Source: Escherichia phage vB_EQ1. From it: a stretch of 64,000 nucleotides of DNA. The number at the start of each line of letters is the position of its first letter. Positions within the stretch are counted from its first letter, which is position 1. The stretch is from the sequence record PQ516281; one strand, written 5' to 3'. Made by a program: the position numbers and the translations under genes. The notes beneath the pieces were generated by a model. It did no database searches and was not told the origin of the DNA. It saw nothing but the letters and a program-made list of their open reading frames with translations. Below are positions 38,940 through 39,131 of this stretch, piece by piece.

Positions 38940-39131
38940 TTATCCTCTGAAATCAGCTTCGAAAACTTTCTCGTCATTAACAAATGCTTTAACTAATGCT
39001 TTGTTCACTTCAGCAAGTTGTACCGTAACCCACTCGATTTCTTCGCGATCACCTGATAACATGATATCTTTAGTGAACATCTCACCGCTTTTAAACCAAC
39101 CGATAAAAGTAACTTTAGTTAATTTGCTCAT
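38940..39131 (-). CDS. dmd: Dmd-like antitoxin, inhibitor of RnlA/LsoA-type RNase toxins (63 aa from ATG 39131)
   Basis: MSKLTKVTFIGWFKSGEMFTKDIMLSGDREEIEWVTVQLAEVNKALVKAFVNDEKVFEADFRG; size, position and motifs as remembered for T4 Dmd. Confidence 0.65.
   Translation of the reverse strand: MSKLTKVTFIGWFKSGEMFTKDIMLSGDREEIEWVTVQLAEVNKALVKAFVNDEKVFEADFRG

Follow-up and report, generated by a model that had tools for sequence, protein, structure and literature searches.

A dmd gene and a predicted mini ADP-ribosyltransferase in an early counter-defence locus of an RB69-type T4-like phage

We analyzed a 64,000-nucleotide stretch of DNA from Escherichia phage vB_EQ1 (sequence record PQ516281), here called the window, with a focus on a small open reading frame (ORF) at positions 38940-39131 on the minus strand. 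This ORF is very probably the dmd gene (the orthologue of T4 gene 61.5) of an RB69-type T4-like phage, and its product would act as a phage-encoded substitute for host antitoxins. The identification is already known, as the gene is annotated in phage RB69 and its product has been crystallized. It adds nothing new in itself, and is useful as an anchor that marks an early counter-defence locus. The main value lies next door. The gene upstream of dmd encodes a conserved 105-residue protein with a predicted ADP-ribosyltransferase (ART) fold, which is predicted to be co-transcribed and coupled with two proven anti-toxin factors.

The dmd ORF runs from an ATG at 39131-39129 to a TAA at 38942-38940 and contains 63 codons and the stop. 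Its product matches the Dmd family in Pfam (PF17587) with an E-value of 6.2e-22 and a score of 78.2 bits, well above the cut-off of 27 bits, and residues 4-63 cover positions 3-60 of the 60 in the profile. PHROG 2102, 'Dmd discriminator of mRNA degradation', is matched with an E-value of 5.9e-34. The best match in the PDB is the crystallized RB69 Dmd (5i8j; E 3e-37, 61 of 63 residues identical), and the second is T4 Dmd in the LsoA-Dmd complex (5hy3_B; E 2e-18). An earlier note on this DNA, made from the sequence alone, had described the 63-residue product as resembling T4 Dmd and had named an alignment as the check. The BLASTP alignment is significant (E 2e-24), with 35 of 60 residues identical (58%) and one 2-residue gap, and bears out this resemblance.

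RB69 Dmd (NP_861729; PDB 5i8j) has the same length, position and flanking genes as the window Dmd. The two proteins are distinguished by two conservative substitutions, K44N and V51I, and residue 44 in the window Dmd is the one found in T4 Dmd. T4 Dmd belongs to the same Pfam family. Compared to it, the window Dmd is three residues longer and has two residues inserted in loop 24-31. W34 and N43 in the window Dmd align with W31 and N40 in T4 Dmd. All five of the diverse Dmd proteins compared have N43, and four of them keep W34. W31 and N40 of T4 Dmd are reportedly needed for LsoA binding, according to work by Wan et al. in 2016. A full-text literature search for the role of these two residues returned nothing relevant.

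A Shine-Dalgarno sequence, GAGGA, was read directly from the DNA at 39135-39139 (minus strand), five bases 5' of the dmd ATG. The 63-residue start is preferred because of this sequence and because it agrees with the RB69 annotation and with the crystallized RB69 protein. The mechanical ORF list instead gave a 70-residue product that starts at an ATG at 39152. This start was rejected, as it has no Shine-Dalgarno sequence, lies inside the upstream gene, and conflicts with both the RB69 annotation and the crystallized protein.

The surrounding DNA is consistent with this assignment. In the 1.4 kb around dmd, the sequence equals that of Escherichia phage MRostami-2023e (OQ031495.1) at 100% identity, and phage RB69 reaches 98.7%. 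Identity to OQ031495.1 is still 100% when 20 kb (30000-50000) are compared, and many Mosigvirus genomes reach ~98% over this length. These identities place the window in an RB69-type T4-like phage (Mosigvirus, the RB69 genus). In T4, the gene order is 41-dmd-61.4-sp-61.2-61.1-61. The window and RB69 share the order 41, dmd-61.4, sp, 61.2 and 61, with other genes in between, and in both T4 and the window dmd is followed directly by 61.4, also called tifA. The earlier note had placed the gene in the 61-41 interval, as in T4. It is indeed located between gene 41 (39964-41406, minus strand), which encodes the replicative helicase, and gene 61 (35230-36252, minus strand). The arrangement next to gene 41 differs from T4. 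In T4, dmd directly abuts gene 41, whereas in the window two genes absent from T4, the orthologues of RB69 ORF041c and ORF040c, are located between them. Altogether, sequence, length, synteny and the early-operon context support the ORF as a true Dmd orthologue.

In T4 dmd mutants, RnlA (RNase LS), a host endoribonuclease, destroys middle and late mRNAs, and its cleavage activity is blocked by purified Dmd (PMC3014915). Both RnlA and LsoA, its homologue on a plasmid, belong to the HEPN RNase toxins. They are restrained by the antitoxins RnlB and LsoB, for which Dmd is a phage alternative (PMC8266594). Dmd binds in a groove between the N-repeated (TBP2) and HEPN domains, beside the catalytic Arg/Glu (PMC8266594). 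For the window Dmd, we infer an RnlA/LsoA-class target and the same mode of binding from this work on T4. According to the proposed mechanism, host shutoff at infection would cause the labile antitoxins RnlB and LsoB to vanish. The RnlA/LsoA HEPN endoribonucleases, then unrestrained, would drive the decay of phage middle and late mRNAs. Dmd, an early protein of ~60 residues, would take the place of the lost antitoxins by binding the toxin directly in the TBP2/HEPN groove, next to the catalytic Arg/Glu, and thereby block it. It would be produced from the second gene of a three-gene unit, ORF040c-dmd-tifA, under a T4-type early promoter.

Several points weigh against this proposal. The specificity of RB69-type Dmd for K-12 RnlA and plasmid LsoA is extrapolated from a T4 protein to which it is 58% identical and relative to which it has the 2-residue insertion. 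The window Dmd also differs from the protein that was crystallized, at residues 44 (K44N) and 51 (V51I). In addition, the promoter calls are consensus matches only, in a region that holds 25 such sites where 19.3 are expected by chance.

One alternative is that specificity has drifted, and that Dmd targets another RnlA/LsoA-family or HEPN toxin of Mosigvirus hosts instead of K-12 RnlA and pOSAK1 LsoA. The level of identity to T4 Dmd is compatible with such a change, and the insertion is located in the loop before the conserved Trp. Dmd evolves fast compared to its operon neighbour. In L006, a diverged T4-like metagenomic contig, Dmd is 47% identical to the window protein and the ART is 83% identical, a pattern typical of arms-race binders. 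The neighbouring RB69 TifA also differs from T4 TifA in potency (PMC9391042). However, the residues aligned to W31 and N40 in T4 Dmd are kept. T4 Dmd already covers two diverged toxins, so the specificity of the family is broad (PMC8266594). We consider a drifted target unlikely, and favor a window Dmd that would act as a substitute antitoxin against RnlA/LsoA-class toxins.

The organization of the locus suggests that dmd is expressed together with its neighbours. The start codon of dmd and the TGA stop codon of ORF040c share an ATGA (39128-39131), an overlap that suggests translational coupling of the two genes. The tifA ATG is located one base past the dmd stop codon. A promoter scan found an early promoter-like site, TTTACT-16-TATTAT, 5' of ORF040c (39472-39499, minus strand). 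The consensus of the promoter-early stem-loop (PeSL) elements in T4 and PST is TTTACW-N17-TAYWAT (PMC4122927). T4 transcribes dmd-tifA early, as a unit under the control of an early promoter (PMC9391042). Because the promoter sites in the window fit the PeSL consensus and T4 dmd-tifA has such a promoter, we interpret ORF040c, dmd and tifA as a single early unit with translational coupling. Another early promoter-like site from the same scan, TTTACA-17-TACTAT, is found 5' of imm.1 (38694-38722, minus strand), and appears to mark where the dmd-tifA transcription unit ends.

The apparent coupling of dmd to an upstream ART-fold gene, which T4 dmd does not have, could also be taken to mean that Dmd is mainly the immunity partner of the ART in a toxin/antidote pair, and not an inhibitor of RnlA. 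The ATGA overlap fits such a relation, and the adjacency of ART and Dmd recurs in Dhakavirus and in contig L006. However, T4 has dmd without the ART. The ART is found without an adjacent Dmd in phiR1-RT, Acinetobacter phage Apostate and Klebsiella phage Matisse, and as a domain within polyvalent proteins that have no Dmd-like partner. A toxin/immunity relation is unlikely because the ART occurs without Dmd in several phages, and with each protein found without the other we rejected the pair as a highly improbable reading. Less probable still, to the point of being negligible, is that the dmd ORF, which spans only 63 residues and is crossed by a competing plus-strand ORF (38929-39171), arose by chance or is a degenerate pseudogene without function; this is refuted by the full-length family and PDB alignments (E 1e-18 to 1e-37), and the start, Shine-Dalgarno sequence and stop are all intact, at least 128 phage records cover at least 80% of the 1.4-kb query (143 at 95% identity or more), and the protein has been crystallized (5i8j). 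The ORF is best regarded as dmd, with its product probably serving as an antitoxin.

The earlier note had also called this stretch an anti-defence neighbourhood and had listed the unannotated small ORFs around dmd as candidates for further counter-defence functions. The first statement agrees with the genes found: tifA adjoins dmd, and AdfA, Spackle, Imm and Imm.1 are encoded further downstream. It is largely published already, including the clustering of the anti-toxin genes dmd, tifA and adfA in T-even phages. The second holds in part. The neighbouring ORFs seem unannotated because the source record, OQ031495.1, carries no gene annotation at all. In RB69, those at 39128-39445 and 39501-39875 are annotated as the hypothetical genes ORF040c and ORF041c. 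The third, 38726-38938, encodes the known TifA, and only the other two are really uncharacterised.

ORF040c in the window (39128-39445, minus strand; 105 residues) is the orthologue of RB69 ORF040c, and is predicted to be a minimal Arr-like ART. The protein conforms to the split β-sheet fold of ARTs, and its closest folds are Arr and KptA/Tpt1. Searches with the protein itself did not reveal this relationship. No Pfam match was found even at E-values up to 10, NCBIfam and PADLOC gave none, and a PHROG search returned families of unknown function only. PDB searches with the single sequence and with a profile of close homologues (A1) gave no match. A broadened family profile (A3), which includes domains from polyvalent proteins, reaches Arr (PDB 2hw2) with an E-value of 0.015. 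In this alignment, H19 in Arr is paired with H15, and Y49 in Arr with F49. Homologous domains in larger proteins exceed the 25-bit cut-off of the Pfam Arr-ms family (PF12120), with scores of 31.5 (P0151), 29.4 (P0152) and 27.5 (P0134) bits; ORF040c itself does not.

The nearest known systems are Arr (rifampin ADP-ribosyltransferase of the H-Y-[E/D] clade; PF12120; PDB 2hw2), KptA/Tpt1 and the anti-CRISPR ART AcrF11. A YHG[ST] motif in strand 1 and an [FY]x[ST] motif in strand 2 align with H19 and Y49 in Arr. ORF040c is distinguished from these systems by its size and by several other features. Arr has ~140 residues and KptA has two domains, compared to the 105 residues in ORF040c. A Phe takes the place of the strand-2 Tyr in Arr, and the C-terminal third of Arr, which binds rifampin, does not align with ORF040c.

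When a profile was searched against 1.84 billion cluster representatives, 222 relatives of ORF040c were identified. Of the best 150, 54 are embedded as domains in proteins of more than 200 residues, which are phage polyvalent proteins. Examples include a portal fusion with a 2H phosphoesterase (P0168), an ART-PolyVal protein with a NUDIX domain (P0164) and a protein with GNAT and Toprim domains (P0179). Other copies are found in LPD23 (P0227), CHAP (P0175) and DUF7178 proteins.

The residues expected to form the NAD pocket are highly conserved among the 150 cluster representatives. H15, G16 and T/S17 are each present in 141 of 141 aligned sequences. The strand-2 aromatic residue is F49 in 139 of 149 and Tyr in the other 10, and Y60 is found in 144 of 148. 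The Y-X10-Y nicotinamide sandwich is a motif of the diphtheria-toxin group of ARTs. The spacing of F49-X10-Y60 in ORF040c equals it. E103, a candidate catalytic acid on the last core strand, is invariant in 31 stand-alone members from T4-like phages, and the matching last strand is variable or unaligned in the polyvalent copies. D88 was considered as a counterpart of D84 in Arr, the catalytic acid, and rejected, as RB69 has N88 and the column is variable. This residue, in a variable 'ND' turn (codon 39182-39184), is the sole difference between the window and RB69 proteins (D88N).

The ORF040c family is present in 609 phage records, from T4-like phages of Escherichia, Klebsiella, Acinetobacter, Aeromonas and Vibrio. 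A few GenBank records of the family are labelled 'putative ADP-ribosyl transferase'. Literature searches for RB69 ORF040c and ORF041c, for the accession numbers and for Arr-like phage ARTs returned nothing relevant. Between T4-like genera, the ART shows higher conservation than gp41, the essential helicase. Compared to the window, it is 84.8% identical in phiR1-RT and 89.5% identical in Dhakavirus FB, and the corresponding values for gp41 are 66% and 68%. In contig L006, the ART (83%) stands against ORF041c at 54%, Dmd at 47% and TifA at 32%. Such conservation implies either an unusually strong constraint on the sequence or a recent exchange between phages. The ART is usually located in the 41-61 interval, as it is in phiR1-RT, Dhakavirus and Acinetobacter phage Apostate. 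An exception is Klebsiella phage Matisse, where it is found near srd and rnlB.

The best reading of these sequence data is that ORF040c is an active mini-ART that would act on a conserved target at an early stage of infection. The fusions with 2H and NUDIX domains and the similarity to KptA would be equally compatible with a protein acceptor and with a phosphate or nucleic-acid one. A more specific hypothesis, which we put forward tentatively and at somewhat less than even confidence, is that ORF040c is among the smallest active ARTs known (105 residues, Arr/KptA-like, with a pocket of H15 and F49-X10-Y60), is produced immediate-early, and ADP-ribosylates a conserved component of the host or of a defence system, or else a nucleic acid or small molecule, with the same module present in the injected polyvalent proteins of other phages. 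If so, ORF040c-dmd-tifA would be a three-part early counter-defence cassette, and the family in the 609 phage records would represent an uncharacterised arm of phage NAD+ warfare. ORF040c is the one item in this locus worth follow-up, and offers an inexpensive and well-defined target for a biochemical screen.

ORF041c (39501-39875, minus strand; 124 residues) is an orphan gene almost confined to Mosigvirus. Among 5.8 billion proteins, only two clusters contain it. It is found in 134 phage records, all but two of them at 95% identity or higher; of these two, one comes from a Salmonella phage and matches at 36%. The sole family match kept is PHROG 10668, of unknown function. Weak matches in PDB, Pfam and NCBIfam (E 0.003 to 0.14) were judged to be chance similarities, and no usable match came from PADLOC. 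An AF2 model computed from three sequences has a pLDDT of 36 and is unusable for a fold search. Contig L006 encodes a copy with 54% identity, in which the first 14 residues differ by one substitution. The sequence comparison supports ORF041c as a real gene because this copy keeps the order ORF041c-ART-Dmd.

Both genes absent from T4 are preceded by candidate mobile regulatory elements. A 19-nt inverted repeat (39445-39463 and 39481-39499, 89% complementary) encloses the ORF040c promoter-like site. The region 39445-39499 thus resembles a PeSL cassette, a mobile promoter/hairpin unit. Upstream of ORF041c, the promoter scan found the early promoter-like site TTTACA-17-TATGAT (39905-39933, minus strand). 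A hairpin with a UUCG loop, GGAGAC-TTCG-GTCTCC (39942-39957, minus strand), was read directly from the sequence immediately after gene 41. Together, these elements may form a composite PeSL-type terminator/promoter (39905-39957). The leader of imm.1 repeats that of ORF040c over 33 nt (38672-38704 and 39450-39482, 76%). It is plausible that the PeSL-like cassettes flanking the extra genes are recombination joints, which could explain the divergence of this interval from T4.

Upstream of these elements, gene 41 is identified by a DnaB_C match (E 1e-17), and 477 of its 480 residues are identical to RB69 gp41. It is preceded by gene 40 (41416-41778) and uvsX (41750-42922), both on the minus strand. 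On the other side of the locus, imm.1 (38297-38665; Pfam DUF5481, E 5e-9), imm (37987-38235; Imm_superinfect, E 2e-15) and sp (37630-37923; T4_Spackle, E 1e-42) are all on the minus strand and were assigned by Pfam matches and the RB69 annotation. In the window, as in RB69, imm.1 and imm are located between tifA and sp; they are absent from the equivalent interval in T4. With this placement, the exclusion, anti-toxin and anti-DarT genes form a single contiguous block, 36978-39445.

The tifA ORF (38726-38938, minus strand) encodes 70 residues and matches Pfam DUF7279 with an E-value of 3.5e-20 and 72 bits, against a cut-off of 24.5 bits. All 70 residues are identical to RB69 gp61.4 (TifA), for which inhibition of the ToxN toxin has been demonstrated in experiments (PMC9391042). 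By this identity, the ORF is the established counter-defence gene tifA. T4 TifA is 57% identical to the window protein, and the basic cluster PTKRQIRQxKRxFRK is conserved. The window TifA does not have the C-terminal extension found in TifA from T2, T4 and T6. In contig L006, two tandem DUF7279 (TifA-family) paralogues are located downstream of Dmd and Spackle, at 1638-2194 in that contig. This pair recalls the tifA amplifications that were selected experimentally in T4.

The anti-DarT gene adfA/61.2 (36978-37616, minus strand) was identified by the Pfam family AdfA (PF23813, E 5e-119) and the RB69 annotation. It is followed by several small ORFs, 61.1 and then gene 61. The mechanical ORF for adfA reaches a GTG at 37637 (36978-37637) and overlaps the end of sp, and the start in RB69 is seven codons later and gives 212 residues. 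The AdfA proteins from the window and RB69 differ at four positions, T84N, V116A, I145T and G154S. These differences could matter, as single substitutions are reported to alter anti-DarT activity.
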